Source: Candidatus Liptonbacteria bacterium
GTDB taxonomy: Bacteria > Patescibacteriota > Minisyncoccia > UBA6257 > 2-01-FULL-56-20
DNA length: 64,000 nt
Direction: 5' to 3'
Assembly (NCBI GenBank): GCA_016182105.1
Contig: JACOXZ010000011.1
Coordinates: 1,218 to 65,217, forward strand
A model generated the notes under the pieces. That model was not told the origin of the DNA. It did not search any database and saw only the letters and a list, made by a program, of their open reading frames with translations. Positions 539 through 63,741 of this stretch are shown one piece after another. Within the stretch, counting starts at the first letter, position 1; each line of letters starts with the position of its first letter. Made by a program: the position numbers and the translations under genes.

Positions 539-786
539 GGTGTGAGGTATTCTTACTCCGCGCACCTTGAGCGTAACACCGGATTTGGCCGCGTCAAACC
601 CCGTCACCTTAAAACATAAATCTTCTTCCTCAAAAATATGATTTGCGAATGAATAACATTTTCTTGAGAAAGACGGCTGGCGCTCACATCTTTCTAAGGT
701 GCGGGGTCAACGCGTCCCAGTCATCCTAGATACCTACTTACCGATAGGTATGTTGCGTTGACTAATGCTGCCGGGCTTGGTATCCT

Positions 787-5924: not shown

Positions 5925-6025
5925 TCCCGTTAGAAGCCGCGATCGCGTTGCTAAAACTCCAAATATCTATCAATGTACAGTCATTACAATGAACTCGCCT
6001 AGATCGCGATCTGCTTCTAACGGGA
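5925..6025. repeat. family-1 miniature TIR element, copy E1 (about 101 bp; TIR tcccgttagaagccgcgatcgcg / cgcgatctgcttctaacggga)
   Basis: 22-nt terminal inverted repeats read directly. The internal sequence is homologous to E2, E3 and E4. The element ends at the ATG of the downstream gene. Confidence 0.8.
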
Positions 6026-10514: not shown

Positions 10515-10629
10515 TCCCGTTAGAAGCCGCGATCGCGTTGCAAATAAATTAAATATCAACCAAATGCGTAATCGTTACAATAAAATAAACCTGCAGACTT
10601 GCGCAAATCGCGATCTGCTTCTAACGGGA
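10515..10629. repeat. family-1 miniature TIR element, copy E2
   Basis: Same 22-nt TIRs as E1. The element ends at ATG 10629. Confidence 0.8.
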
Positions 10630-11870
10630 TGAAATTTCTTTTGATTTTAGGGTCGATTTTAGTGGCGGGCGCGGGCCTCTTTTTTATATTCGGAACTTCC
10701 AAAAATTTAATCATCGAACCCAAGGAAAATCCGCAAGGTGATCTTAACCTGACGCTTCTCCGTGTTCCGGAGCCGCCGCTTCCGACCTCAACCCCGCCTT
10801 CACCGCCCACGGCCGTCGATATCACAAACCAGCCGCCGCTTCAAGACCCGCCCCGGGTAGTCAAGGGAATATATGCAACGAGCTGGTCAGCTGGGTCAGA
10901 AAATAAAATTAAATATTTACTTGACCTTATAGATAAAACCGAACTTAACGCTATCGTCATTGATATAAAAGATTATTCCGGCTACGTGGCCTACAGAACC
11001 GGCATTCCCGAAGTTAGAGCCGCAGGCGCCGAAGACCAGATTCGCATCGCAAAACCAAACGCCCTGCTCAAACGTCTTCACGACAAAAATATCTATGTGA
11101 TCGGCAGGATCTCGGTTTTCCAGGACCCGATCTTAGCCAAAGCCCATCCCGAGTGGGCACTCGTTTCTTCAAGCACTGGCAAGCTCTGGGAAGATCGGAA
11201 AGGGCTCCTCTGGATGGATCCGGCCGCAGAACCAGTCTGGGATTATAATTTGAAGATTGCTAGAGACGCCTTGACGCGGGGTTTTGACGAGATTAACTTC
11301 GACTATATTCGTTTTGCTTCTGACGGCGACCTTAAAAATATTAAATATCCGGTTTGGGACGAGAAATCTTTAAAAAGCACAGTGATTAAGAACTTCTTTT
11401 CCTATTTGCGGAAAAATCTTCCCCAAGCCAAGATCTCCGCTGATCTTTTTGGTCTTGCGACCGTGAATCAAGAGGGCTTAGGCATCGGTCAGATTATAGA
11501 AGATGCTTACGAGTATTTTGATTATGTTTCGCCTATGGTTTATCCTTCACATTATGCTCCGGGATTCAATAACTACAAAAATCCCGCCGAGCACCCTTAT
11601 GAAGTGATTCGTTATTCACTTGATGAGGCTCTTAGACGTTTAGAAAACTATTCAAGCTCCACAAATCTTGAGGTTGGTTTAAAATCCAAACTGCGGCCGT
11701 GGCTCCAGGATTTTAACCTCGGCGCGACTTATGGCCCGGAAATGGTGAGGCGTGAGATTCAAGCCGTGGAAGATTCTTTGAATAGCGCCTCGAGTTCCAA
11801 CGCTTTCGCCGGCTGGCTTCTTTGGGATCCAGCGAATGTCTATACGGCAGCGGCCCTTCAAAACCAATGA
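10629..11870 (+). CDS. exported TIM-barrel glycoside-hydrolase-like protein (GHL/DUF4015-type)
   Basis: Signal/TM MKFLLILGSILVAGAGLFFIF, and a GHL-like core VKGIYATSW...NAIVIDIKD...WMDPA...FDEINFDYIRF. The ORF-track start at 10599 lies inside the repeat. Confidence 0.55.
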   Translation: MKFLLILGSILVAGAGLFFIFGTSKNLIIEPKENPQGDLNLTLLRVPEPPLPTSTPPSPPTAVDITNQPPLQDPPRVVKGIYATSWSAGSENKIKYLLDLIDKTELNAIVIDIKDYSGYVAYRTGIPEVRAAGAEDQIRIAKPNALLKRLHDKNIYVIGRISVFQDPILAKAHPEWALVSSSTGKLWEDRKGLLWMDPAAEPVWDYNLKIARDALTRGFDEINFDYIRFASDGDLKNIKYPVWDEKSLKSTVIKNFFSYLRKNLPQAKISADLFGLATVNQEGLGIGQIIEDAYEYFDYVSPMVYPSHYAPGFNNYKNPAEHPYEVIRYSLDEALRRLENYSSSTNLEVGLKSKLRPWLQDFNLGATYGPEMVRREIQAVEDSLNSASSSNAFAGWLLWDPANVYTAAALQNQ

Positions 11871-11881
11871 TAATGATAAAG

Positions 11882-12150
11882 AAAGCAAAGCAATTCTTTT
11901 TTTCCGCGGCTATTCGGCCGAAGCGGGCATGGCGCCCTGACTTTTGGCTTTCGGGAACCGGCGTCGCCTCTGCTCCAGCGGCAGAGTCGCGCCTGCATCT
12001 CGGCACTAAAATCCGCCTAAGGCGGAACCAAGCTTTTAGTGCCTCCGATAGCTTCCCGCAAACCAAAAGTCAGGGCGAGCGAGGCCGAATCGCCAACGAA
12101 AGTCCACGCTGGGGACTTGAGTGGTAGGAAAAAGGGAATTGCTTTGCTTT
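11882..12150. repeat. GC-rich long hairpin element, copy C (269 bp; perfect 15-bp terminal inverted repeats aaagcaaagcaattc / gaattgctttgcttt)
   Basis: Nested inverted repeats (ccctgacttttgg/ccaaaagtcaggg and ggcactaaaa/ttttagtgcc). The 5' and 3' ends align with copy A. Confidence 0.65.
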
Positions 12151-12876
12151 ATGACCTATGAATTGAGTTTAGAAAAATATAGGGGGCCGCTTGATAAACT
12201 CCTCGAGCTTATTGAGGAGAGAAAGCTTGAAATTACCGAGATCAGCCTAGCCGAGGTAACTCAAGATTTTTTGAAGTATTTGAAGACTTTGAAGAGAGTT
12301 GAGGCTGCAATTTTAGCTGAATTTATCGCTGTTGCGAGCCGCCTGATCCTTATTAAATCCAGAACCCTTCTTCCTAATCTGGTGTTGACAGAAGAAGAGG
12401 AAAACGAAATAAAGGATCTCGAGGCTCGGCTTAGAATTTATAAGGAGTTAAAGCCGGCCATGAAAATCCTTGTCTTGATTTGGCAGAAGAAGAACGTCGC
12501 CTTTGGGAGACCCTATTTTTTGAGCTTGGGAAGCGGGGGCCTGGGAGCTACGAGCGAGTTTTTTTATCCCGGCAAGGAATTAAATTTAGCCGCCCTTTCC
12601 GTGAGTCTCCAAAAGATCTTTGAGACCTTGAAGAACCTAGAGTTTGAGACAGAAACCATCAAAGAGAAAATCGTTTCTGTGGAGGAAAAGATTAAAGAGC
12701 TCATAAGCCGCCTAGTTCGCGAGGTGGAGATCAGTTTCAAAAATTTATCTTCTTCCAAATCAGCAAAGGAGATCATTGCCGTCTTCTTGGCCATTCTTCA
12801 TTTGGCCAACGAGCGGCTGATCTCATTGGAGCAAGAAACCCATTTTTCTGATATACTGATAAAAAAAATAGGATGA
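12151..12876 (+). CDS. scpA: segregation and condensation protein A
   Basis: MTYELSLEKYRGPLDKLLELIEERKLEITEISLAEVT matches the ScpA N-terminus. Confidence 0.75.
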   Translation: MTYELSLEKYRGPLDKLLELIEERKLEITEISLAEVTQDFLKYLKTLKRVEAAILAEFIAVASRLILIKSRTLLPNLVLTEEEENEIKDLEARLRIYKELKPAMKILVLIWQKKNVAFGRPYFLSLGSGGLGATSEFFYPGKELNLAALSVSLQKIFETLKNLEFETETIKEKIVSVEEKIKELISRLVREVEISFKNLSSSKSAKEIIAVFLAILHLANERLISLEQETHFSDILIKKIG

Positions 12877-12972
12877 TGCAAATCTACAAAATCTATGCCA
12901 AGTATGCGAATTGCGAATCCGGAGTTTATTAGCAATTTGTAGATTGGCATTATATTTGCAAATTGGCATAAC

Positions 12973-13593
12973 ATGGAAAATGTAGAAGAAAATTTAGCGA
13001 GTTTGGAAGCCCTTCTTTTTATTCAAGGCGAACCGATTGCAAAAAAAAGAATTGGAAAGATTTTGAATCTTCCGCTTGAAGATCTCGAGAAAGTCTTAGG
13101 CGAACTAGAGAAGCGTCTTCACGAGGAGAGCCGCGGACTCTCTTTGGTACTGGACGCGGAAAAAGTCCAGCTTGTTACCAAGTCCAAATTCAGAAATCTT
13201 TTGGAGAGTTTTGCCAAAGAGGAGCTTAGCGAAGAGCTTACGCCGGCTAGCGTTGAAGCTCTCTCAATTATTTCTTATTTAGGACCGATCTCAAGAAGCC
13301 AGCTCGATTTTATTCGAGGTGTGAATTCTACCTTTATTCTAAGAAATCTTTTAATTAGGGGGCTCGTCGAGCGCACACCCCACCCTAAAAGTCCGAATAC
13401 CTATCTCTACAGCCCTAGTTTTCAGCTTCTGCGGCACTTGGGGTTAAAAAATAAAGAAGAACTCCCGGAATACGCAAAGTACCAGGAGCTTTTGAAGAAT
13501 TTCACCCCGTTACACCCAGAAAGCATGGGCTATAAAGATAAGTCGGGTCACGCAGGGGAGGGTGTAACGGGGTTTGGTAGCGATGGTGAGTAA
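12973..13593 (+). CDS. scpB: segregation and condensation protein B
   Basis: LEALLFIQGEPI plus winged-helix repeats. It follows scpA. Confidence 0.7.
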   Translation: MENVEENLASLEALLFIQGEPIAKKRIGKILNLPLEDLEKVLGELEKRLHEESRGLSLVLDAEKVQLVTKSKFRNLLESFAKEELSEELTPASVEALSIISYLGPISRSQLDFIRGVNSTFILRNLLIRGLVERTPHPKSPNTYLYSPSFQLLRHLGLKNKEELPEYAKYQELLKNFTPLHPESMGYKDKSGHAGEGVTGFGSDGE

Positions 13594-15605: not shown

Positions 15606-16886
15606 TTGCTAGACTTTGGTTTTCTTGGTATTCTCTGGTTAATGCTTCAATCTAGACTTTTTACTAAGGTCGCCCGTAACTTCCCAAAAGATGAAGAGGC
15701 GATAAACGCCAAGCTTCTTACGCGGGCGGGGTTTGTGGAGAAAGTTTCGGCGGGTGTATATTCGTTTTTGCCGCTCGGACTTCGCGTGATGCGTAAGATT
15801 GAAACAATTATTCGCGAGGAGATGAACGCGCTAGGTGGAATGGAGATCTTGATGCCCGCGTTGCATCCTAAAGAAAACTGGGAGACGACTGGCCGCTGGA
15901 AGACTTTTGACGTGCTCTATAAAATCAAATCGCGGGAAGGCAAAGAATTTGCCTTGGGTCCGACACACGAAGAAATCGTGGTGCCGCTAGTGGCGAAATT
16001 CGTGAATTCCTACAAAGATTTACCTGTTTATCTTTACCAAATACAGGACAAATTCCGAGATGAACTGCGCGCGAAATCAGGCCTTCTCCGAGGTCGGGAA
16101 TTCTTGATGAAGGACTTATACAGTTTTCATACCTCCGAAGGCGATTTAGACTCTTTTTATGAAAAAATGAAAAAAGTTTATACGAAATTATTTTCCCGAG
16201 CCGGACTAAAAACTAGAATAGTGAAGTCATCCGGCGGCACTTTTTCCAAATATTCTCATGAATTCCAGGTATTGACCCCAGTCGGCGAGGATGCGGTTTT
16301 CTACTGCGAAAAGTGCGATTTTGCCGAAAACAAAGAGATTGCAGAGGTAAAAGAAGGGGACAAATGCCCAAATTGTGCGGGGAAAATAAGGGTAAGCCAG
16401 GGAATTGAGGTCGGCAATATCTTCAAATTAGGCACCAAGTTTTCCAAGGATTTTGAGCTTCTCTATAAAGACGAGAAAGGCAAGGAGAATCATATCTCAA
16501 TCGGCTGTTACGGCATAGGCCTTAGCCGGCTTATGGGCGCCATAGTAGAGATTTTTCATGATGAGCAGGGCATAATTTGGCCGGAGACAGTCGCCCCTTT
16601 TGCTGCGCATCTTATAGAGCTTGGGGAAGGCAAATCCAAAAAGCTCTACCACGATTTACAAAAAGCCGGAATAGATGTACTTTATGACGACAGGAATATA
16701 TCACATGGCGAGAAACTGACAGAAGCGGATCTGATTGGCATACCCCTACGTCTGGTTCAGAGCGAAAAAACCGGCGCGAAGATTGAGGTCAAGCGCCGCG
16801 ACGAGAAAGATTCAAAACTGATGACAGTGTCACAAGTTATAAAATTACTACAACCTACAACCTACAACCTACAAACTATAACCTAA
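15606..16886 (+). CDS. proS: proline--tRNA ligase (short archaeal/eukaryal-type class II)
   Basis: Class II aaRS motifs and a C-terminal zinc CxxC...CxxC. The C-terminus is encoded by an acctacaa word repeat. Confidence 0.75.
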   Translation: MLDFGFLGILWLMLQSRLFTKVARNFPKDEEAINAKLLTRAGFVEKVSAGVYSFLPLGLRVMRKIETIIREEMNALGGMEILMPALHPKENWETTGRWKTFDVLYKIKSREGKEFALGPTHEEIVVPLVAKFVNSYKDLPVYLYQIQDKFRDELRAKSGLLRGREFLMKDLYSFHTSEGDLDSFYEKMKKVYTKLFSRAGLKTRIVKSSGGTFSKYSHEFQVLTPVGEDAVFYCEKCDFAENKEIAEVKEGDKCPNCAGKIRVSQGIEVGNIFKLGTKFSKDFELLYKDEKGKENHISIGCYGIGLSRLMGAIVEIFHDEQGIIWPETVAPFAAHLIELGEGKSKKLYHDLQKAGIDVLYDDRNISHGEKLTEADLIGIPLRLVQSEKTGAKIEVKRRDEKDSKLMTVSQVIKLLQPTTYNLQTIT

Positions 16887-19054: not shown

Positions 19055-20933
19055 AGCCAAAAATTTTACCGATTTCGAGGAGTCGTTAAATGGCGGCTCA
19101 CGCGAGGAAGTCATAGAGGTGCCCTTGAGCAGCCAGCCGCTTTTTTATACGGGCTTATTAATTTTTCTTTTTGCCGCGCTTGCCGTAGGCCGCGTTCTTT
19201 TCTTGGGTGTAGTCTCCGGCGAAATCTATAAAGCCAGGGCCGAGGCCAATTCTAGCGAGCTCGAGCGGCTTCAAGCGCCGAGGGGTCTCGTCTTCGCGAG
19301 AGGCGGAGAAGTTTTGGCAGAAAACCAGCCGGTTTTCCTGGCCGTCTTGAAGACCAGCGAATTTCTAAAAGACGAGTCTATCCAAGAAAAAACGCTTGCT
19401 TCAATCAAGGAGATTATGGGAATTGATAGAGAACTAGTCTGGAGTCTGATCAAAGAACGAGACCAAGAAAGAATAGGCGACCCAATTGTTCTTAGCGCCG
19501 ACCTAAGCCAAACTGAGCTAATTCAGCTTAAAAGCCTCAATTCCTTGTCCCTGGTCGTAGAGAGCGGTTTCAAGAGGAATTATCCGGACGGCCCAATTTT
19601 TTCTTCCATAATTGGCTATACCGGACTCCCTACCGCCCTAGATCTTAGAGAGAATGCCGAACTTACCGGCGTGGATTTTGTTGGCAAATCCGGCCTAGAG
19701 GCTTTTTACGATAAAGATCTCCGCGGAAAAAACGGATTTTTAGCGTATCTCCGCGATGCCAAAGGTGAAATCTTCGAAGAAAAAAAGGAGAGGCCAGTCG
19801 AGGCAGGAGCGGCTCTCAATTTAACAATTGACGCTGAATTTCAGCGCTATTTTTACCACAGGATGCAAGAGGGACTCACCTCATTAGGGAGAAACTCCGG
19901 CGTTGGTCTGGCGTTAAATCCGAGAAACGGCGAGGTTTTGGCCCTGATTAATTTACCGAGCTACGACCCCAATATTTTCTTGGCTCCAGAGAAAAACGAA
20001 GAGAGGTTGAAACTCTTGAATTCACCGGAGACGCCCCTGTTCAATCGGGCTATAAGCGGCACCTACAGCCCAGGTTCCACAATTAAGCCGCTCGTGGCTC
20101 TCGCGGCTTTGAGCGAAGGCGTGATCAACACCGAAAAACAAATTTATTCCCCAGGCTATCTTGAAATTCCGAATCCTTATGACCCCCAGAAACCCACTCT
20201 TTTCCTCGATTGGCGGCCCCAGGGCTGGGTGAATTTAGAGCGGGCCATTGCTCAGTCCTCGAACGTTTATTTCTACACTGTAGGCGGTGGCTTCGGCGAT
20301 ATTAAGGGGCTGGGGATCAAACGTTTAAACGACTGGTGGCAAAAATTTAATTTAGGAAAGCTCACTGGCATTGATTTACCTTGGGAGGCCAAGGGACTTT
20401 TGCCCACAGTCGAGGAAAAAGAAAAAAGAACCGGCACGCCCTGGCTTTTGGGCGATACTTATAACGTCTCAATTGGCCAGGGAGATCTCTTGCTTACTCC
20501 TCTTCAGATTTTAAACTACGTTGCCGCAATTGGAAACGGCGGGAAAATCTACCGGCCGTTTCTTGTCTCGAATTTCAAACACTCCGAAGTTGCTAGCGAC
20601 CTTTCTAATCTTCAAACTCAAATTTCTGAAGTGGAGAAAGGCATGAAGGCCGCAGTGAATTTTCCCTTAGGCACCGCCTACCTCCTTCACGATCTTCAGG
20701 TCTCGGTCGCTGCAAAAACCGGAACAGCCCAGATTTTGTCGAACACCCAGGCCAACGCCTTCTTTGTCGGTTTTATGCCGGCCGAGGATCCTGAAATTGT
20801 TATCCTGATTTTAGTTGAACGTTCGCGCGAAGGCAGTTTAAACACCGTGCCTATCGCTAAAGACGTGCTTAACTGGTACTACTTAAACCGGATCCCTCAC
20901 CCTTCAGAGATTTTATCTACGTCATCAAAATGA
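19002..20933 (+). CDS. mrdA: penicillin-binding protein 2 (transpeptidase)
   Basis: STIKP (SxxK), SSN and KTGTA motifs. The last 11 codons and the stop codon lie inside family-2 repeat F2-1. Confidence 0.8.
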   Translation: MLSQLFLSLKPSMPRKYKAKNFTDFEESLNGGSREEVIEVPLSSQPLFYTGLLIFLFAALAVGRVLFLGVVSGEIYKARAEANSSELERLQAPRGLVFARGGEVLAENQPVFLAVLKTSEFLKDESIQEKTLASIKEIMGIDRELVWSLIKERDQERIGDPIVLSADLSQTELIQLKSLNSLSLVVESGFKRNYPDGPIFSSIIGYTGLPTALDLRENAELTGVDFVGKSGLEAFYDKDLRGKNGFLAYLRDAKGEIFEEKKERPVEAGAALNLTIDAEFQRYFYHRMQEGLTSLGRNSGVGLALNPRNGEVLALINLPSYDPNIFLAPEKNEERLKLLNSPETPLFNRAISGTYSPGSTIKPLVALAALSEGVINTEKQIYSPGYLEIPNPYDPQKPTLFLDWRPQGWVNLERAIAQSSNVYFYTVGGGFGDIKGLGIKRLNDWWQKFNLGKLTGIDLPWEAKGLLPTVEEKEKRTGTPWLLGDTYNVSIGQGDLLLTPLQILNYVAAIGNGGKIYRPFLVSNFKHSEVASDLSNLQTQISEVEKGMKAAVNFPLGTAYLLHDLQVSVAAKTGTAQILSNTQANAFFVGFMPAEDPEIVILILVERSREGSLNTVPIAKDVLNWYYLNRIPHPSEILSTSSK

Positions 20934-21023
20934 GTACTACAGACAAGACGTTTCCTTTCAAAGTCGCTCGGCAAAAGAGATCACACCATGAAAAATCGTG
21001 CATGATCTCTGAATGGTGAGGGA
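20893..21023. repeat. family-2 miniature TIR element, copy F2-1 (about 131 bp; TIR ccctcacccttcagagat / atctctgaa.ggtgaggg)
   Basis: Homologous to the copies at 34724 and 62973. It ends at an ATG. Confidence 0.8.
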
Positions 21024-21364
21024 TGATTCAAAAATTTATTCGATTTAAAATCACAAGCGCTGCTTTCTTCGCGAGTTTGACACTGGTTTTAAGTGGATGG
21101 CTTTGGGCCTATTTTTCGTTAAGAAATCTCCCGCCACCCTATATTCTTAGGTTTGTGAGCAATCTTGGTGTGACCCAATTAGGCGATCTTCAAGACATTG
21201 CCGCCGCCGGAGCCGTGGCCATGATAAGCGTGCTTTTGAATTTTATACTGGCTTTTGAGCTTGAGACCAAAGCAAAGTTTTTAGCGAAACTCCTGACTTT
21301 TTCAACCCTGACTTTTGCCGCCTTGATTTTCATCGGCTTCGCCGCTATTATTAGCGTCAACTAG
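21023..21364 (+). CDS. hypothetical small membrane protein
   Basis: 113 aa with three hydrophobic segments. The start is supplied by the end of F2-1. Confidence 0.35.
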   Translation: MIQKFIRFKITSAAFFASLTLVLSGWLWAYFSLRNLPPPYILRFVSNLGVTQLGDLQDIAAAGAVAMISVLLNFILAFELETKAKFLAKLLTFSTLTFAALIFIGFAAIISVN

Positions 21365-21757: not shown

Positions 21758-21884
21758 AAGCCCCGCCTTCGTCCGTAAGGACTTCGGCGGGGTGCTCGAT
21801 TTCGTGATCTCGCTTCGCTCGAACGAAATCGGCAAAGGGGCATCGGCAACATTTTACGGAAGTTAAGATAGAGAAAATATAAAA

Positions 21885-32982: not shown

Positions 32983-33573
32983 ATGGCCCATCCAAAGGAG
33001 GAAAAAACGGTAATTATCGTAAAGCCCGACGGCGTGAAACGCGGGTTAATCGGCGAGATTATGAAGCGAGTTGAGCAGCGCGGGTTAAAGATTATTGCAG
33101 TAAAGATGATTCAGGCTGACAAGCCTCTGATTGACAAGCACCTGCCCAAGAGCAGGCAGTGGATTATTGATGTCGGAAACAAAAGTTTGGAGGACTATAA
33201 AAAATATAAACTTGACCCTCGAAAGCATATCGGGACCGCTGATCCGTTCAAGATTGGAATGTTGGTGCGAAAGTGGCTTTTTGATTATTGGACGTCAGGT
33301 CCTGTGGTAGCGTTCGCGGTTCAGGGAGTGCACGCGATTGACATGGTGAGGAAGATTGTCGGGAATACCTTGCCGGCCAAGGCCGAGATGGGAACGATTA
33401 GAGGGGACTATTCGGTTGATTCGGCGATTTTAGGAAATTTAGGGAAACGGGCGGTGCACAACATCGTCCACGCCTCGGGGAGTCCGGAAGAAGCAAGGAA
33501 TGAGTTCAAGAAGTGGTTTAAACCAAATGAGCTTCATTCTTACGATCGCGCCGATGACGATATTATGTTCTAG
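32983..33573 (+). CDS. ndk: nucleoside diphosphate kinase (with an internal insertion)
   Basis: IIKPDGVKRGLIGEI, and a GTIRGDY....N..HAS segment that matches Ndk GTIRGDF...N..HGSD. Confidence 0.7.
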   Translation: MAHPKEEKTVIIVKPDGVKRGLIGEIMKRVEQRGLKIIAVKMIQADKPLIDKHLPKSRQWIIDVGNKSLEDYKKYKLDPRKHIGTADPFKIGMLVRKWLFDYWTSGPVVAFAVQGVHAIDMVRKIVGNTLPAKAEMGTIRGDYSVDSAILGNLGKRAVHNIVHASGSPEEARNEFKKWFKPNELHSYDRADDDIMF

Positions 33574-34342
33574 ATTTTAAGAAAGTTTTGATAATTTGAT
33601 TTAAATCTCCGCCTAAGATTTTTTCAATATTGTGGAATTTTTTGCCGAGGCGGTGGTCGGTGACGCGGTCTTCGGGGAAATTGTAAGTGCGAATTTTCTC
33701 GGCGCGCTCGGCCGAGCCGATCTGTTCTTTCCTGAGGCCGCCGATTTTTTGCTGTTCCTCGATTTTCTTTTGTTCAAAAAGCTTGGCCCTTAAGATCGCG
33801 AGCGCTTTTTCCTTGTTGGCTGATTGAGACCGCTCAACTTGAGAAGAAACCACAAGGCCGGTTGGCTTGTGCAGTATCCTCACAGCCGTTTCCACCTTAT
33901 TAACGTTCTGTCCGCCCGGGCCCGAGGAACGAAAAAAAGAGATTTCCAAATCTTGGCTCATGATTTCTACTTCTTTAGTTTCGACTTCCGGGAGTACCGC
34001 GACCGAGGCTGTGGAGGTATGAACCCGGCCGGACTTTTCGGTTTTTGGTATCCTTTGCACGCGATGCACACCTGATTCATTCTTTAAACTTTGAAAGACG
34101 TCATCGCCCGCGATTTCAGCAACCAGGGTTTTGTAGCCGCTTAAGGTTGTTTGGCTATAGTCTAAAATTTCAAAGCGCCAGAGGCGGCTCGCGGCATAAC
34201 GTTGATACATTCTTGCCAAATCCGCGGCGAAAATAGCGGCCTCATCGCCGCCCGCTCCGGCTCTAATCTCTAATATAACTTTATCCTTGCCCATAGCTTC
34301 AAATTTGCTTTTGAGTATAGTATTATAAAGGTGATGAATCAA
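33563..34342 (-). CDS. release factor 1-like protein lacking N-terminal domain 1 (259 aa)
   Basis: GGQ motif (SGPGGQNVNKVETAVRI) and PKT tripeptide in VHRVQRIPKTEKSGRVHTS. Confidence 0.6.
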   Translation of the reverse strand: MIHHLYNTILKSKFEAMGKDKVILEIRAGAGGDEAAIFAADLARMYQRYAASRLWRFEILDYSQTTLSGYKTLVAEIAGDDVFQSLKNESGVHRVQRIPKTEKSGRVHTSTASVAVLPEVETKEVEIMSQDLEISFFRSSGPGGQNVNKVETAVRILHKPTGLVVSSQVERSQSANKEKALAILRAKLFEQKKIEEQQKIGGLRKEQIGSAERAEKIRTYNFPEDRVTDHRLGKKFHNIEKILGGDLNQIIKTFLKSRT

Positions 34343-34723
34343 CCACCGCTTATTTTACTTGTTGACGACGAAGCCGATTTTCTGGAAATATTTTATACAA
34401 AACTTCGGGCTGCGGGCTTCAGAGTGGAGACAGCCGAGAGCGGCGAGAAAGCGATTGAGGCGGCCAAAAAACTTAAACCCGATCTGATTTTAATGGATAT
34501 GAAGATGCCTAAGATGAACGGCGCCCAAGTTATGATGAAGCTTAAAGAAGATCCTGAAACCAAGGATATAAAAGTGGTATTTCTCACTAATTTTGGCGAC
34601 CCTCGGACCGAGATGGAAGAAATTGATCGCAAATTTTCCAGAGATCTTGGCGCCATGGATTATTTGAGAAAGACGAGCGACCTTGATGAGGTGGTTCAAA
34701 AAATACAAACTTTTTTTAAGTGA
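34331..34723 (+). CDS. single-domain response regulator (CheY-like receiver)
   Basis: LLVDDE...D...MP receiver motifs. Confidence 0.7.
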   Translation: MMNQPPLILLVDDEADFLEIFYTKLRAAGFRVETAESGEKAIEAAKKLKPDLILMDMKMPKMNGAQVMMKLKEDPETKDIKVVFLTNFGDPRTEMEEIDRKFSRDLGAMDYLRKTSDLDEVVQKIQTFFK

Positions 34724-34855
34724 CCCCCCCACTCTTCAGAGATTTTCTCTACGTCATCAAAATGAGTACTATAGACAAAATGTTTCATTTCAAGGCCGTT
34801 CGGCAGATGAGATTATGCTACGAAAAATCGTGCATGATCTCTGAAGAGTGAGGGA
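34724..34855. repeat. family-2 miniature TIR element, copy F2-2
   Basis: It begins immediately after the TGA of the upstream response regulator and ends at the ATG of the next one. Confidence 0.8.
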
Positions 34856-35262
34856 TGAGGCCGAAACCTTTAATTTTATTAGTTGACGATGAGGCTGATT
34901 TTCGAGAGATTATCAGCGCGAAGCTCACCGCAGCGGGTTTTGACGTTGCTCTAGCTAAAAATCAGTCCGAAGCCGTCGCTAAAGCCGAGCAACTCTTGCC
35001 TGACCTGATTTTAATGGATATCTATTTGCCGCCCGGGCCAACCGGGACTGATACGGCCTTGAACATCAGGCAAAATCCCAAAACCAAAGATTTAAAAATC
35101 GCATTCCTCACCAATCTTAAAGAACCCTGGCCTGCAATCGGCGGGGATAGAGAAAAAGTTACCCAAGAGCTTGGCATGGAAGGGTTTATAGAAAAGACAG
35201 AAGATTTGAATATGCTCGTCAAAAAAATCCAGGAAATTTTAGAGAAGGCTCCCTCGTCTTGA
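34855..35262 (+). CDS. single-domain response regulator (paralogue of 34331-34723)
   Basis: MRPKPLILLVDDEADF receiver domain. Confidence 0.7.
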   Translation: MRPKPLILLVDDEADFREIISAKLTAAGFDVALAKNQSEAVAKAEQLLPDLILMDIYLPPGPTGTDTALNIRQNPKTKDLKIAFLTNLKEPWPAIGGDREKVTQELGMEGFIEKTEDLNMLVKKIQEILEKAPSS

Positions 35263-35325
35263 CCCCGCACCTTAGAAAGATTTCGTTTTCTAGAACGCCT
35301 GTGGATAAATCCTTATTTTTATTAC

Positions 35326-35410
35326 ACAAAATCTGATTTGCGAATGACCTACCCTTATTATCAAGAAAAACGGCTAGGCGTTCACATCTTTCTAAGGTGA
35401 CGGGGTTGAT
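35326..35410 (+). promoter_or_regulatory. conserved ~80-nt intergenic element upstream of rpsP (copy b of the atctttctaaggtgNcgggg motif)
   Basis: It aligns position-for-position with 636-710. The core recurs at 53342-53365. Confidence 0.4.
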
Positions 35411-35440
35411 TTTTTATCGGCTGGCGCTATAATCTTTCGC

Positions 35441-38568: not shown

Positions 38569-39744
38569 ATGAATGGCGTAAAGGCTAAAAAAGTGGTTTT
38601 CGTGGGACTAAGCGGAGGGGTGGATAGCTCGGTCGCAGCCCTGATTTTATCTGGCTACGCCAGATCTCGCGAAGCGAGAAAAGAAAAAGGATACGAAGTA
38701 ATCGGGGTTTTTATGCGCTGTTTCAATTTAGACGGGTGTGCCGAGCGAGATGCCGAGGACGCCAGACGGGTGGCTGGTCACCTTGGGATTCCTTTTTACG
38801 TCTGGGATTTTGAGGAGGAGTATAAGCAACGGGTGGTGGACTACATGGTTCAGGGATACGCCCAAGGGATTACCCCGAATCCGGACGTGATGTGCAATAA
38901 GGAAATCAAGTTTGGGCTCTTTTTAGAGAAGGCGCTTAAGATGGGAGGGACTCACGTGGCCACGGGGCACTATGTTCGGCTGACTGTTTCTCGGGACCGG
39001 CTGTTGACTCGCTCCAGCGGCGAGTCCCAGCCTGCGAGAGCTCCTTCGAAGCAATCAGCCTCACCAGTTTATTCGCTTTCTGTTGCTAAAGATAAAAATA
39101 AGGACCAGTCCTATTTCCTTTGGACTTTGACCCAAAAACAGTTGAAGCATTGCCTTTTTCCGATAGGAAGTTATTTAAAGTCCGAGGTGCGTGAAATTGC
39201 ACGTAAGGCCGGGCTCCCGACGGCTGATAAAAAAGATTCGCAGGGGATTTGTTTTTTAGGGAAAGTGACGCTCGGGGATTTTCTGCGAGAGTATATTCCC
39301 GAGGAGAGGGGGCCGGTTTTAAGCGTGACTGGCGAGCGGCTCGGCGAGCACCAGGGCTCTCATTTTTATACGATCGGCCAGCGCCGCGGGATTGGGATTG
39401 GCGGCGGCACGCCCTACTACGTGGCGGAAAAGGATGTGGCGACAAATACGCTCGTTGTTGCCCCGAGTGAAACTCACGAGTCGCTCTATCGAAAGGAAAT
39501 CGAGCTTACTGATGTAAATTTCATCCGGTCGGATTTACCATCTCTAATTCGCGCGAATAAGGGAATTGAGGTTTTAGCTAGAGTTCGCTACCGCCAGCCG
39601 CTTGCTCTCGCGAAACTCTATAACCTATCACCTAACACCTATCACCTCGAATTTGGCCGGCCTGTCAAATTCGTCACCCCCGGCCAGTCAGCCGTGTTCT
39701 ATCTAAAGGACGGTGAGATGTTTGGCGGGGGGATAATCACATGA
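38569..39744 (+). CDS. mnmA: tRNA 2-thiouridine(34) synthase MnmA (with a GC-rich in-frame insertion)
   Basis: PP-loop SGGVDSS and the KDQSYFL motif. Confidence 0.8.
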   Translation: MNGVKAKKVVFVGLSGGVDSSVAALILSGYARSREARKEKGYEVIGVFMRCFNLDGCAERDAEDARRVAGHLGIPFYVWDFEEEYKQRVVDYMVQGYAQGITPNPDVMCNKEIKFGLFLEKALKMGGTHVATGHYVRLTVSRDRLLTRSSGESQPARAPSKQSASPVYSLSVAKDKNKDQSYFLWTLTQKQLKHCLFPIGSYLKSEVREIARKAGLPTADKKDSQGICFLGKVTLGDFLREYIPEERGPVLSVTGERLGEHQGSHFYTIGQRRGIGIGGGTPYYVAEKDVATNTLVVAPSETHESLYRKEIELTDVNFIRSDLPSLIRANKGIEVLARVRYRQPLALAKLYNLSPNTYHLEFGRPVKFVTPGQSAVFYLKDGEMFGGGIIT

Positions 39745-40328: not shown

Positions 40329-40370
40329 AACCAACCCTGCCGCCAAAAACTGAGCAAAATTTCTACTATG

Positions 40371-40403
40371 ATTATACCGCAATTGCGGTATAATCGTAGT
40401 AAG
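40371..40403. promoter_or_regulatory. perfect 24-bp palindrome ATTATACCGCAATTGCGGTATAAT plus CGTAGTAAG (copy 1, upstream of rpsB)
   Basis: Read directly. A near-identical copy is at 62923-62955. Confidence 0.5.
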
Positions 40404-41264: not shown

Positions 41265-41703
41265 GTTAGGCGATATCCAGAGGCTGCGGGAGGCAACCGG
41301 AGCTGGAGTCATGGAGTGCAAAAAAGCCATAGAAGATGCGGAAGGTGATTTTGACCGAGCAGTAAGTTTGATTCACAAAAGGGGGCTTCTTAAGGTTCAA
41401 AAGCGCAAGGCACGGGAAACCGGAGCCGGACTTATTGAATCCTACGTTCATAATGATAGGATTGGCGTTCTCTTGGATTTGCGGGCTGAGACTGATTTTG
41501 TTGTCCGTTCCGAGCCTTTTCGCCGGCTCTCCCACGAGCTTGCCATGCAGATTGCGGCTCTCGCGCCTCAAAATCTTGAGGAATTATTGAAACAGCCGTA
41601 TATTAAAGATGAATCTAGGACTGTCGAGGATTTAATAAAAGAAGTGATTGCCCTGGTTGGCGAAAACATCCGAGTTAATAAGTTCTATCGTTTAGAACTC
41701 TAA
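41257..41703 (+). CDS. tsf: elongation factor Ts (short form)
   Basis: LREATGAGVMECKKAL-type N-terminus. It overlaps the rpsB stop. Confidence 0.7.
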   Translation: MDKLGDIQRLREATGAGVMECKKAIEDAEGDFDRAVSLIHKRGLLKVQKRKARETGAGLIESYVHNDRIGVLLDLRAETDFVVRSEPFRRLSHELAMQIAALAPQNLEELLKQPYIKDESRTVEDLIKEVIALVGENIRVNKFYRLEL

Positions 41704-41735
41704 AACCTAAAACCTATCACCTAAAACCTAGTAAC

Positions 41736-51412: not shown

Positions 51413-51519
51413 CACCCAGCACATAAATTTATGATGACGTTCACAAACAACAAATCAATAACTGCCACACAAAACAGCTTAATACTGAAGGTCACCTGGT
51501 TAAATTTATGTGCTGGGTG
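51413..51519. repeat. perfect 19-bp inverted repeats (cacccagcacataaattta / taaatttatgtgctgggtg) flanking a 69-nt loop
   Basis: Read directly. Intergenic between holB and frr. Confidence 0.6.
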
Positions 51520-51558
51520 CTCAATTTTATCATCTCGCTTCGCTCGAACAAAATTGGC

Positions 51559-52125
51559 ATGACAGCTGAGGTAGCGGGAAGATTTATTAAGGAACTCGAA
51601 GCTGAATTGAAGTCGGTGGTTCAAAGATTCCGTGAAGAGGTGAGAGTCCTCCGCGGCAGCCGTCTTTCGACCGAACCTGTGGAAAATATTAAGGTTAATT
51701 ATTATGATGAATGGCTTACAATAAAAGAGCTTGGGACCCTTACGGTCGTACCGCCACGCGAAATTGATATTAAAGTCTGGGATAAAACTGCGGCACCGCT
51801 TATCTTAAAAGCTTTGGAAGATTCTAAAAGCGGGCTCACAGTTCAAAGTGAAGGGGACTTAATTAGAACCTTTCTTCCGGTTTTAACCAAAGAGCGCCGC
51901 GAGGAGCTTGGAAAACTCGTTAAAAAAATATCCGAGTTGAGCCGTATCCAAGTTAGGAGCCGTAGGGACGAGGCGATAAAAAAAATCAAGTCAGCAAGCG
52001 ACAAAAAAGAGATTAGCGAAGATCAGGTTTTTAAGTCTAAAGAAAAAATCCAAGAATTAGTTGATAATGCGAATAACCAAATCGAAACCATTGTTCAGAA
52101 TAAAATCAAAGAACTAAGCGAATAA
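51559..52125 (+). CDS. frr: ribosome recycling factor
   Basis: RRF motifs VRVLRGSR, VKVWDK. The ORF-track start at 51508 reads through a hairpin motif. Confidence 0.8.
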   Translation: MTAEVAGRFIKELEAELKSVVQRFREEVRVLRGSRLSTEPVENIKVNYYDEWLTIKELGTLTVVPPREIDIKVWDKTAAPLILKALEDSKSGLTVQSEGDLIRTFLPVLTKERREELGKLVKKISELSRIQVRSRRDEAIKKIKSASDKKEISEDQVFKSKEKIQELVDNANNQIETIVQNKIKELSE

Positions 52126-53225: not shown

Positions 53226-53341
53226 TCCCGTTAGAAGCCGCGATCGCTTTGGGTAATGCATAGTTGTTTGCCGTATGGATAGTCATTGTTATACATCGCT
53301 ATAGTCCACATATCACTGATCGCGATCTGTTTCTAACGGGA
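53226..53341. repeat. family-1 miniature TIR element, copy E3
   Basis: Same TIRs as E1 and E2. Flanked by cgttg on both sides. Confidence 0.8.
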
Positions 53342-53383
53342 CGTTGCTATCTTTCTAAGGTGCGGGGTAAAATAGAGATATAA

Positions 53384-59018: not shown

Positions 59019-59087
59019 CTTTTAGCTGATAGCTTTTAGAAGTAAAATAACTAAAAGCTAAAAGCTGTAACCTAAAAGCTAGTAATT

Positions 59088-59456: not shown

Positions 59457-59502
59457 CGGCCTAAAAGCTAAAAGCTATAAGCTAAAAGCTAAGGGTGGTT
59501 AC

Positions 59503-60563: not shown

Positions 60564-60680
60564 TCCCGTTAGAAGCAGATCGCGATCTGGGTAAGTCTGC
60601 AGTTCAATTTTATTCACTGTAATGACTATACACTGATAGATGTTGGATTTTTAGCAACGCGATCGCGGCTTCTAACGGGA
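60564..60680. repeat. family-1 miniature TIR element, copy E4 (inverted relative to E1, E2 and E3)
   Basis: The reverse complement of the internal sequence aligns with E1 and E2. It ends at the ATG of the histidine kinase. Confidence 0.8.
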
Positions 60681-62907: not shown

Positions 62908-62922
62908 AAAGAGTTACTATTA

Positions 62923-62955
62923 TTATACCACAATTGCGGTATAATCGTAGTAAGG
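62923..62955. promoter_or_regulatory. palindromic motif copy 2 (attataccAcaattgcggtataatcgtagtaag)
   Basis: 32 of 33 positions match 40371-40403. Confidence 0.5.
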
Positions 62956-62972
62956 TTTAATAAAAGAAAATG

Positions 62973-63103
62973 ATCCCCCACCTTTCGGAGATTTCTCCCC
63001 GTCATCAAAACGAAGTTTGGACACAAAGCATTTGTTTTCAAGGTCGCCTTAGACTTGAGACCGTGCTTCAGAAAGAAGCGTATGATCTCTGAAAGGTGAG
63101 GGA
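62973..63103. repeat. family-2 miniature TIR element, copy F2-3
   Basis: It ends at the ATG of sodA. Confidence 0.75.
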
Positions 63104-63741
63104 TGAAATTTGAATTACCAGCGCTCCCGTATCCATACGACGCACTAGAGCCATTTATTGACGCTCGGACCATGGAGATTCACCACACCAAGCATCACGC
63201 GACATACGTGGCGAAGCTGAACGAGGCCCTGGAAAAACACCCCGCCGTCGCTCACGCTTCGGCGGGCAAGCCCGAGTTCGAAATACTGGAAGGACTTTTG
63301 AAGAATCTCGAGGCGGTTCCAGAAGATATAAGAACCGCAGTCAGGAACCACGGCGGAGGGCACTGGAACCATTCTTTTTTTTGGTTGGTAATGGCTCCAA
63401 ATGCCGGAGGCGAACCGAGCAGCGTCTTAGCTGAAGCAATAAATAATGCTTTCGGCAGTTTTGAAAAATTCAAAGAAAAATTCACTAGCGCTGGTCTTAA
63501 TAGGTTTGGCTCCGGCTGGGCCTGGCTCGTGGCGAGTAACGGCAAGTTAGAAGTTTACAGCACGCCGAATCAAGACAACCCTTTAATGGAAGGAAAAGTT
63601 CCGGTTTTGGGTATCGATGTGTGGGAACATGCGTACTATGTTAAATTTTTATGGAATAGGGCAGAGTATATTAAGACCTGGTGGAACGTCGTTAATTGGC
63701 GACGAATTGAAGAAAATTACAATAAAATTGTGAAAAAATAG
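63103..63741 (+). CDS. sodA: Fe/Mn superoxide dismutase
   Basis: [18 protein letters not shown]. Confidence 0.9.

Follow-up and report, generated by a model that had tools for sequence, protein, structure and literature searches.

Miniature inverted-repeat elements at start codons of a Candidatus Liptonbacteria genome: a probable transposon family that spares both neighbouring proteins

The stretch of DNA analysed here (hereafter the window) comprises 64,000 nucleotides, 89% of them coding, from contig JACOXZ010000011.1 of Candidatus Liptonbacteria assembly GCA_016182105.1; the host is an ultra-small groundwater bacterium of the candidate phyla radiation (CPR, or Patescibacteria), and the SodA encoded here shows 100% identity to a protein from an NCBI MAG of Candidatus Liptonbacteria. 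Three dispersed copies of a short element with terminal inverted repeats, termed family 2 in the following, are present in it, and each of them runs exactly up to the start codon of the next gene. We present evidence that these repeats are very probably copies of a non-autonomous DNA transposon, namely a MITE, or miniature inverted-repeat transposable element. The genes and features at the three loci are as follows.

20892-20933, plus strand: new C-terminal tail and stop codon of PBP2 (IPHPSEILSTSSK, then the stop), read from copy 1 and replacing an ancestral IKNAK and stop
20893-21023, plus strand: family-2 element copy 1, between the PBP2 gene and the gene for a 113-aa membrane protein, with inverted repeats at 20893-20911 and 21005-21023
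21023-21025, plus strand: rebuilt ATG of the 113-aa gene, its A being the last base of the element and its TG target DNA
34721-34723, plus strand: TGA stop of the upstream response regulator, abutting copy 2 and matching the TGA of the ATGA on the right (34856-34858)
34724-34855, plus strand: family-2 element copy 2, flanked by the two response-regulator genes in tandem, its left repeat degraded (CCCCCCCAC)
62915-62954, plus strand: promoter-like palindrome with TATAAT, upstream of copy 3 and repeated at 40364-40403
62970-62973, plus strand: remnant of the original sodA start (ATGA), whose TGA (62971-62973) is the left target duplicate, the right duplicate lying at 63104-63106
62974-63103, plus strand: family-2 element copy 3, of a divergent subfamily, within the sodA 5' leader
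21023-21364, 34855-35262 and 63103-63741: open reading frames (ORFs) starting at the copy ends, for the 113-aa membrane protein, a response regulator and SodA, respectively

An earlier, sequence-only reading of the window had grouped these copies as one inverted-repeat family, and its description of their anatomy largely stands. The three copies are homologous over their full length, as it had supposed: in an end-to-end alignment copies 1 and 2 share 84-86% identity, and copy 3 shares 66-70%. The coordinates it gave are right for copies 1 and 2 and one base off for the third, which starts at 62974, not 62973. The element measures 130-131 bp, lacks a transposase ORF and presents stops in all three frames. 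Its terminal inverted repeats (18-20 nt, 90-95% complementary in the window copies; consensus TCCCTCACYCTTCAGAGAT) show 93.6% conservation, as compared with 75.3% in the interior, within which the internal CGTCATCAAAAYGA singled out earlier is indeed identical in all three copies. The right-end motif ATGATCTCTGAANNGTGAGGGATG occurs exactly three times in the window, as opposed to 0.00 times expected from 100 shuffles. All three copies end in ...GTGAGGGA, and it is with this final A that the ATG of the next ORF opens; the ORF positions thereby confirm the proposed junctions with the membrane-protein, response-regulator and sodA genes, as well as the location of copy 2 directly after a TGA and between the two response-regulator genes. 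These downstream starts are well supported, since Pfam domains begin at residues 2-7 of the encoded proteins and the close orthologues of the 113-aa protein (82-92% identity) match it in length and N-terminus. With domains beginning so early there is no room for better alternative starts, which the earlier reading had named as a possible weakness.

The same layout extends beyond the window. A scan of JGI metagenomes for the exact right-end pattern, with the ATG left out, recovered six contigs with the element, all from metagenome Ga0213870, whose population is ~85-90% identical to the window and represents a sister population. GTDB representative genomes, scanned for the same right-end pattern, yielded zero matches; scanned for the symmetric repeat (exact 19-mer), they yielded one related element, in Liptonbacteria RIFCSPLOWO2_01_FULL_56_20 (locus L007; loci outside the window are denoted by such labels), with termini as in family 2 and a different interior. 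The total thus comes to ten copies at nine loci, the Ga0213870 copy L004 being orthologous to window copy 2. All ten end in the same terminal sequence followed by TG and then an ORF, so that the picture of a miniature inverted-repeat element lying at upstream stops and flush with the next ATG holds throughout. The downstream genes are unrelated to each other, coding for an HMA-domain protein, Fmt, ScpB, SodA, a response regulator and small membrane proteins.

That the element was inserted at these places follows from relatives in which the orthologous sites are empty. Such sites, which the sequence-only reading had suggested looking for, were found for copies 1 and 2, for the copy in L005 and for the sister family 3 described below. 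At the copy 1 locus, five contigs (L011-L014 and L017), with orthologues of the 113-aa gene that are 90-92% identical, have an empty junction reading ...AACCGGATCAAAAACGCAAA-ATGA-TTCAAAAATTT (junction ...CGGATCAAAAACGCAAAATGATTCAAAAA), in which the PBP2 stop overlaps the next start; the window reads ...AACCGGA, the element and then TGATTCAAAAATTT. At the copy 2 locus, the syntenic contig L018 (with genes for NDK, a release factor, two response regulators and S16) has AAATGATCTTCGATGAGAGC between both regulators, and L019 and L020 are likewise devoid of the element. The L005 copy is inserted in the ATGGAA start of scpB, the window orthologue of which, at 12973, is without an element. Orthologous contigs free of the element exist for all three window copies; in the case of copy 3, however, the sodA relative with 73% identity (L008-L010) lacks synteny, and hence provides no exact empty site. 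Taken with the size, the inverted repeats, the dispersed copies and the target duplication documented below, this filled/empty polymorphism speaks strongly for membership among the MITEs.

Family 2 is not alone in the window, which holds further elements of similar build.

5925-6025, plus strand: family-1 element copy A (TCCCGTTAGAAGC...GCTTCTAACGGGA), TGA/TGA flanks, its end flush with the ATG at 6025
10515-10629, plus strand: family-1 copy B, TGAA/TGAA flanks, left remnant ATGAA, flush with the ATG at 10629 (DUF4015 gene)
53226-53341, plus strand: family-1 copy C, CGTTG/CGTTG flanks, no start codon there, abutting or sitting in a family-3 remnant (53344-53367)
60564-60680, minus strand: family-1 copy D, its interior inverted with respect to A, B and C, flush with the ATG at 60680 (histidine kinase gene)
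35263-35405, plus strand: family-3 element (CCCCGCACCTTAGAAAGAT...ATCTTTCTAAGGTGACGGGG), TTGA flanks at 35259-35262 and 35406-35409
599-706, plus strand: family-3 copy with a degraded left repeat

The four copies of family 1 have the same tips (TCCC...GGGA) as family 2, occur in both orientations and are flush with ATGs in three cases. The repeats of family 3 clearly resemble those of family 2; it ends in G rather than A and lies at starts in none of three cases. Its empty site in L004 reads cgccTTGAtttttt, as opposed to cgtcTTGA-(element)-TTGAtttttt in the window, which makes for a clean 4-bp duplication. Family 2 is one member of a small superfamily, of which the window holds at least two sister families. 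Profiles of all three families run with nhmmer against all fetched loci revealed no further copies. The second response regulator has its stop in the TTGA target of family 3, with which the -35 box of the rpsP promoter (TTGATT-16-TATAAT) also begins; duplication of this target (35259-35262 / 35406-35433) restores both.

For reading the flanks of families 1 and 2, the element is defined as TCCC...GGGA, which gives the following direct repeats.

TGA, with left flank ATGA: copy 3, L001 and L003
TGA, with left flank GTGA: copy 2 and L004
TGGA: L005
TGAA: L007 and family-1 copy B
TGA: family-1 copy A

The target duplication is therefore 3-4 bp long and nearly always the TGA (or TGAA/TGGA) of a gene-start ATGA, where a stop and a start frequently overlap. 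ATGA is already present at the empty sites, and family-1 copy C, which lies away from a start, ends in GGGA followed by CG (of CGTTG); it follows that the TG is not part of the element, and that only the A of the ATG is element-derived while its TG is duplicated target. The earlier statement that the element supplies the start codon is thus right for the terminal A and wrong for the TG. Insertion thus takes place behind the A of the start, in front of its TGA, which is duplicated; since the element ends in ...GGGA, the right target copy is again preceded by an A, whereby the downstream ATG is kept exactly where it was. On the left, the duplicate TGA either stays as the stop of the upstream gene or, with the old A, persists as a decoy ATG opening a short upstream ORF (uORF). 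Every frame entering the element meets an internal TGA; in most copies one of these lies in a conserved CATCAAAATGA box, and this TGA is in the frame of the decoy ATG. As all three incoming frames stop inside the element, no read-through fusion with the downstream gene is possible. Both neighbouring proteins survive the insertion owing to this combination of an upstream stop or remnant ATG, three-frame stops and the rebuilt ATG.

The left junctions of copies 1 and 2 depart from this scheme. Relative to the empty sites, copy 1 shows a 17-nt loss (TCAAAAACGCAAAATGA) between two GATC microhomologies, and copy 2 has probably undergone a 10-nt loss between TGATC repeats; in both cases the duplicated target and the opening bases of the element together make up the microhomologies. 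The loss accounts for the missing left duplication of copy 1, and because it took the last PBP2 codons along with the stop, PBP2 now ends inside the element, which gives it 13 codons and a stop rather than the 11 codons assigned to it before. Small secondary deletions at these microhomologies have thus trimmed both left junctions after insertion. Alternatively, junctions of this kind, in place of clean duplications, might reflect spread without a DDE transposase, be it in REPIN-like fashion via a RAYT/IS200-type enzyme or by template switching or gene conversion at GATC (left) and ATGA (right). Such a process would sit well with the failure to find a transposase, with a hairpin architecture like that of REPINs and with the uniform orientation of family 2, which is what strand-specific mechanisms are expected to produce. 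Nevertheless, we consider it highly improbable: the TTGA duplication of family 3 is clean, as verified by its empty site, six family-1/2 copies keep a left ATGA, ATGAA or ATGGA as simple duplications, and family 1 is found in both orientations. Moreover, IS200/IS605-type elements make no target duplications and bear subterminal hairpins, not terminal inverted repeats. Transposition followed by trimming remains our preferred account of these junctions.

At its right end the family-2 element carries AGGTGA, by virtue of which it had been proposed to deliver a Shine-Dalgarno (SD)-like motif to the next gene. AGGTGA is complementary to the usual 3' end of 16S rRNA, which in this genome lies outside the window, at an aligned spacing of ~6 nt, and the spacing within the element (AGGTGA-GGG-ATG) is acceptable for an SD site. 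However, SD-like motifs occur before the genes of this window only at background: any 4-mer of this type is present at -18 to -4 in eight of 60 starts (13%, against a background of 14.9%), and a 5-mer in three of 60, two of them being element copies. Further, family 1 places CTAACGGGA where family 2 has AGGTGA. The native upstream regions are A/T-rich (GC content of the last 15 nt mostly 0.07-0.40), whereas those provided by the elements reach 0.53-0.67 and lie in the stem. Native starts in the window are either A/T-rich upstream or located 6-8 nt past a TATAAT; nine of the 60 lie 4-16 nt after a TAnnAT box (TATAAT), and, with these starts just past TATAAT, the sequence suggests that leaderless or very short-leader mRNAs may be frequent in this Liptonbacteria genome. 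The proposed delivery of an SD motif finds no support in these comparisons, and AGGTGA is probably a part of the inverted repeat rather than a working SD site.

This bears directly on the idea that the element has been domesticated, i.e. is kept by selection as a donor of a ribosome-binding site (AGGTGA) and start, or as a hairpin switch that couples or throttles downstream translation. The flush position with the ATG in ten of ten copies, the single interior orientation in eight of eight independent insertions, a flush layout preserved or tidied by the secondary deletions in copies 1 and 2, the complementarity and spacing of AGGTGA just mentioned, and a stem that sequesters the start in the predicted fold would all be in line with such a role. 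Yet the background frequency of SD-like motifs and the CTAACGGGA of family 1 speak against the donor function, close relatives do without the element at all three loci, and the covariation of the interior does not rise above that of shuffles. Copy 2 and its orthologue in L004, moreover, have diverged as fast as their flanks (90% as against 90.6% identity). On these grounds we view domestication as unlikely, and retain a mobile element that does little harm at its site as the better description.

The fold itself is pronounced: RNA predictions return a ~20-bp terminal helix (-40 to -49 kcal/mol, z-scores of -4 to -6) in which pairing extends as far as the AU of the AUG, which answers in the affirmative, as far as the predicted fold goes, the question raised by the sequence-only reading of whether the stem sequesters the start site. 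For the interior, RNAalifold gives three small helices with many G-U changes, where covariation is not above shuffles. A strong sense-strand fold that includes the start region, always upstream of a gene and in sense orientation, is also what one would see in a conserved, non-mobile cis-regulatory RNA leader such as a riboswitch, thermometer or attenuator. This reading is contradicted by the very existence of empty sites, the element being absent from the orthologous loci of relatives that are 85-92% identical, and we accord it next to no probability; the downstream genes are functionally unrelated, covariation does not go beyond the terminal stem, the element has flanking duplications, and one copy overlaps a coding tail. 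Nor does Rfam offer a match, as searches of the whole window at the gathering threshold and of copy 2 at E<=1 returned only tRNAs and noise.

How genes behind a mobile hairpin might be translated is suggested by the way in which the left arm is approached. It is reached by the PBP2 frame in copy 1 and abutted by the upstream stop in copy 2 and L004; in copy 3, L001, L003, L005 and L007, where the native upstream region is kept, the decoy ATG opens a 14-40-codon uORF across the left arm, that of copy 3 running for 40 codons and terminating within the right repeat. Ribosomes arriving on the left arm would open the stem and thereby expose the rebuilt ATG, and such translational coupling by unfolding would be the most economical model of downstream translation. 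Alternatively, RNase III might cleave the stem and leave a short-leader mRNA, by analogy with the Correia elements. Scans of the three copies for sigma-70 promoters and intrinsic terminators recovered no consensus promoter and no sense-strand terminator; CATGAT/GATCAT were considered as outward -10 boxes and, judged by eye, discarded as too weak. Copy 3 presumably lies inside the sodA transcript, since the TATAAT palindrome is located upstream of it. The 20-bp perfect palindrome over this TATAAT (TATACCGCAATTGCGGTATAAT) is found upstream of both gene 40449 and sodA, and looks like a shared promoter-operator for some regulator.

The start placement is non-random, with 12 of 13 independent family-1/2-type insertions at starts, although the window holds ~158 intergenic TGA/TCA sites outside elements versus 33 NTGA-type starts. 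It is possible that the transposase prefers TGA in very A/T-rich initiation regions, that insertions elsewhere were purged as disruptive of promoters or leaders, or that the start-flush layout was positively selected.

Several points weigh against the transposition reading and need to be set beside it. First, neither the window nor the fetched loci, the GTDB representatives (exact 19-mer) or viral contigs yielded an autonomous element or a transposase whose repeats match; in the last, scans with the family-2 and family-3 repeats hit only chance matches in coding DNA, with no second repeat. Second, copy 1, copy 2/L004, L002 and family-1 copy D are without a perfect duplication and call for secondary changes, and duplications vary in length (3, 4 or 5 bp). 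Third, all eight independent family-2 insertions have their interior turned the same way with respect to the gene (a chance of ~1 in 128), which symmetric repeats and simple transposition do not account for. Fourth, the consequences for coupling or RNase III processing are ones that we infer. With regard to the first point, the element would be mobilised in trans by a transposase encoded elsewhere, and the end-sequence pairs expected to bound a cognate autonomous element are TCCCNCAC...GTGNGGGA or CCCCGCACC...GGTGCGGGG. To our knowledge the repeats have no convincing match in IS5, IS1380, IS3 or Tn3, and we assign them to no family. A stretch of ~1.1 kb that is present in L005 and absent from the window was considered as a place for a transposase, and holds what looks like a peptidoglycan-enzyme gene instead. 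With regard to the orientation, insertion may be strand-specific with respect to replication, given that almost every gene of the window is on one strand, or the sense-strand RNA may have a role. The geometry of the uORFs was dismissed as a cause, since frames running through a reversed element likewise terminate within it or at the rebuilt ATGA. All in all, we hold it likely that a start-codon MITE with target duplication, leaving both neighbouring proteins alive, together with mobilisation in trans and opening or cleavage of the stem, is the best explanation of the whole.

The window and its relatives contain other repeats and genes that merit mention. Heptad-like arrays of ~31 nt (CTAAAAC/CTACAAC) are found at 16848-16878, 39611-39641, 41700-41730, 59051-59081 and 59461-59491, as well as at 371-400 of L002; three of them lie ~10 nt upstream of ATGs (16889, 41736 and 59088), and one array is kept in the sister population. 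The release-factor-like gene near copy 2 (33563-34342, minus strand) codes for only 241-259 aa and matches the PCRF profile from position 98 only, this N-terminally short form being conserved in relatives (L018 2246-2971; L019 754-1485). Nested inverted repeats (11882-11905/12127-12150 and 11933-11957/12053-12077) occupy window 11598-12157, in the place of which L005 has, at 1166-2814, a 454-aa protein that by the look of its sequence acts on cell-wall peptidoglycan as an enzyme, so that the window lineage may have lost a gene or gained another small element here. The region upstream of scpB (12877-12972) has an inverted repeat of its own, likewise small (GCAAATCTACAAA...TTTGTAGATTGGC), which the sister contig L005 lacks and which may be a further small insertion. 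Finally, a perfect 19-nt inverted repeat (51413-51431 / 51501-51519) has the ATG of ORF 51508-52125 in its right arm, and the first ~48 nt of this ORF are repeated at 21787-21834.

The genomes of the CPR/Patescibacteria are tiny and dense, and the survival of mobile DNA in them has been little studied; the element described here points to one way, in that insertion into a start codon, with the stop and the ATG restored, avoids damage to either protein. More speculatively, this could be a CPR superfamily of MITEs specialised for start codons, in which the transposase targets the TGA of ATGA in the A/T-rich initiation region, the terminal A is an adaptation, the stops and stem make translation-coupled or RNase III-processed junctions, and the orientation of family 2 reflects a function of the sense-strand RNA. 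We put this forward as a tentative possibility, and are inclined to doubt it as a whole. If true, it would represent a 'stealth' persistence of mobile DNA where intergenic space is scarce, and a possible source of new post-transcriptional control. Likewise, if the stem gates translation, each insertion rewires the coupling of neighbouring genes, for which the natural filled and empty alleles in groundwater offer a comparison. There are also implications for annotation: elements of this type alter or extend C-termini (as in PBP2), create decoy ATGs and uORFs, and mimic ribosome-binding sites or RNA regulators.

Bacterial MITEs, including the Correia elements (CREE) of Neisseria, RUP, ERIC, Nezha and Chunjie, have been reviewed (PMC3184786), and the present element shares with them a size of ~100-200 bp, the lack of an ORF, terminal inverted repeats, short duplications, dispersed copies and long co-transcribed stem-loops. 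It differs from those described in showing no sequence similarity, and in being flush with starts (12 of 13), where its terminal A and the duplicated TG rebuild the ATG. Functionally, the closest parallels are the MIRUs of Mycobacterium, the REP2 repeats of Neisseria together with the IR repeats of Borrelia, and the Correia elements. MIRUs (Supply et al. 1997, as summarised in the review) are described as lying between operon genes, with tetranucleotide direct repeats and filled/empty sites, and as having ends that overlap the neighbouring stop and start and so preserve polycistronic translation, as is the case here; the review depicts them as 40-100-bp units, often in tandem, with imperfect inverted repeats and small in-frame ORFs (PMC3184786). 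The Liptonbacteria element, by contrast, is a single 131-bp unit with strong repeats that stops every incoming frame. REP2 and the Borrelia IR-A/IR-B are likewise dispersed repeats of ~120-180 bp fused to a translational start; however, they have no terminal inverted repeats, include a promoter, a ribosome-binding site and the complete ATG, and act like copied 5' regions (PMC3184786), whereas the element here has no consensus promoter, contributes only the A of the ATG and is shown by its empty sites to have transposed. In Correia elements, the end together with the TA duplication gives rise to promoter elements, and RNase III acts on the stem (PMC3184786); the 26-bp Correia repeats are missing from our element and its duplications are centred on TGA, not TA, which places it outside that family. 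REPINs resemble it as hairpin-forming intergenic repeats of ~100 nt with two inverted arms, but they do not duplicate their target and come with a RAYT gene; the duplications verified here set it apart from REPINs as well, and no RAYT-like gene was noticed in the window, not all ORFs of which were scanned. Full-text literature searches returned no description of MITEs in CPR/Patescibacteria. What is new here, then, is the CPR host and the consistent insertion into start codons, with the ATG rebuilt from a terminal A and a duplicated TG.

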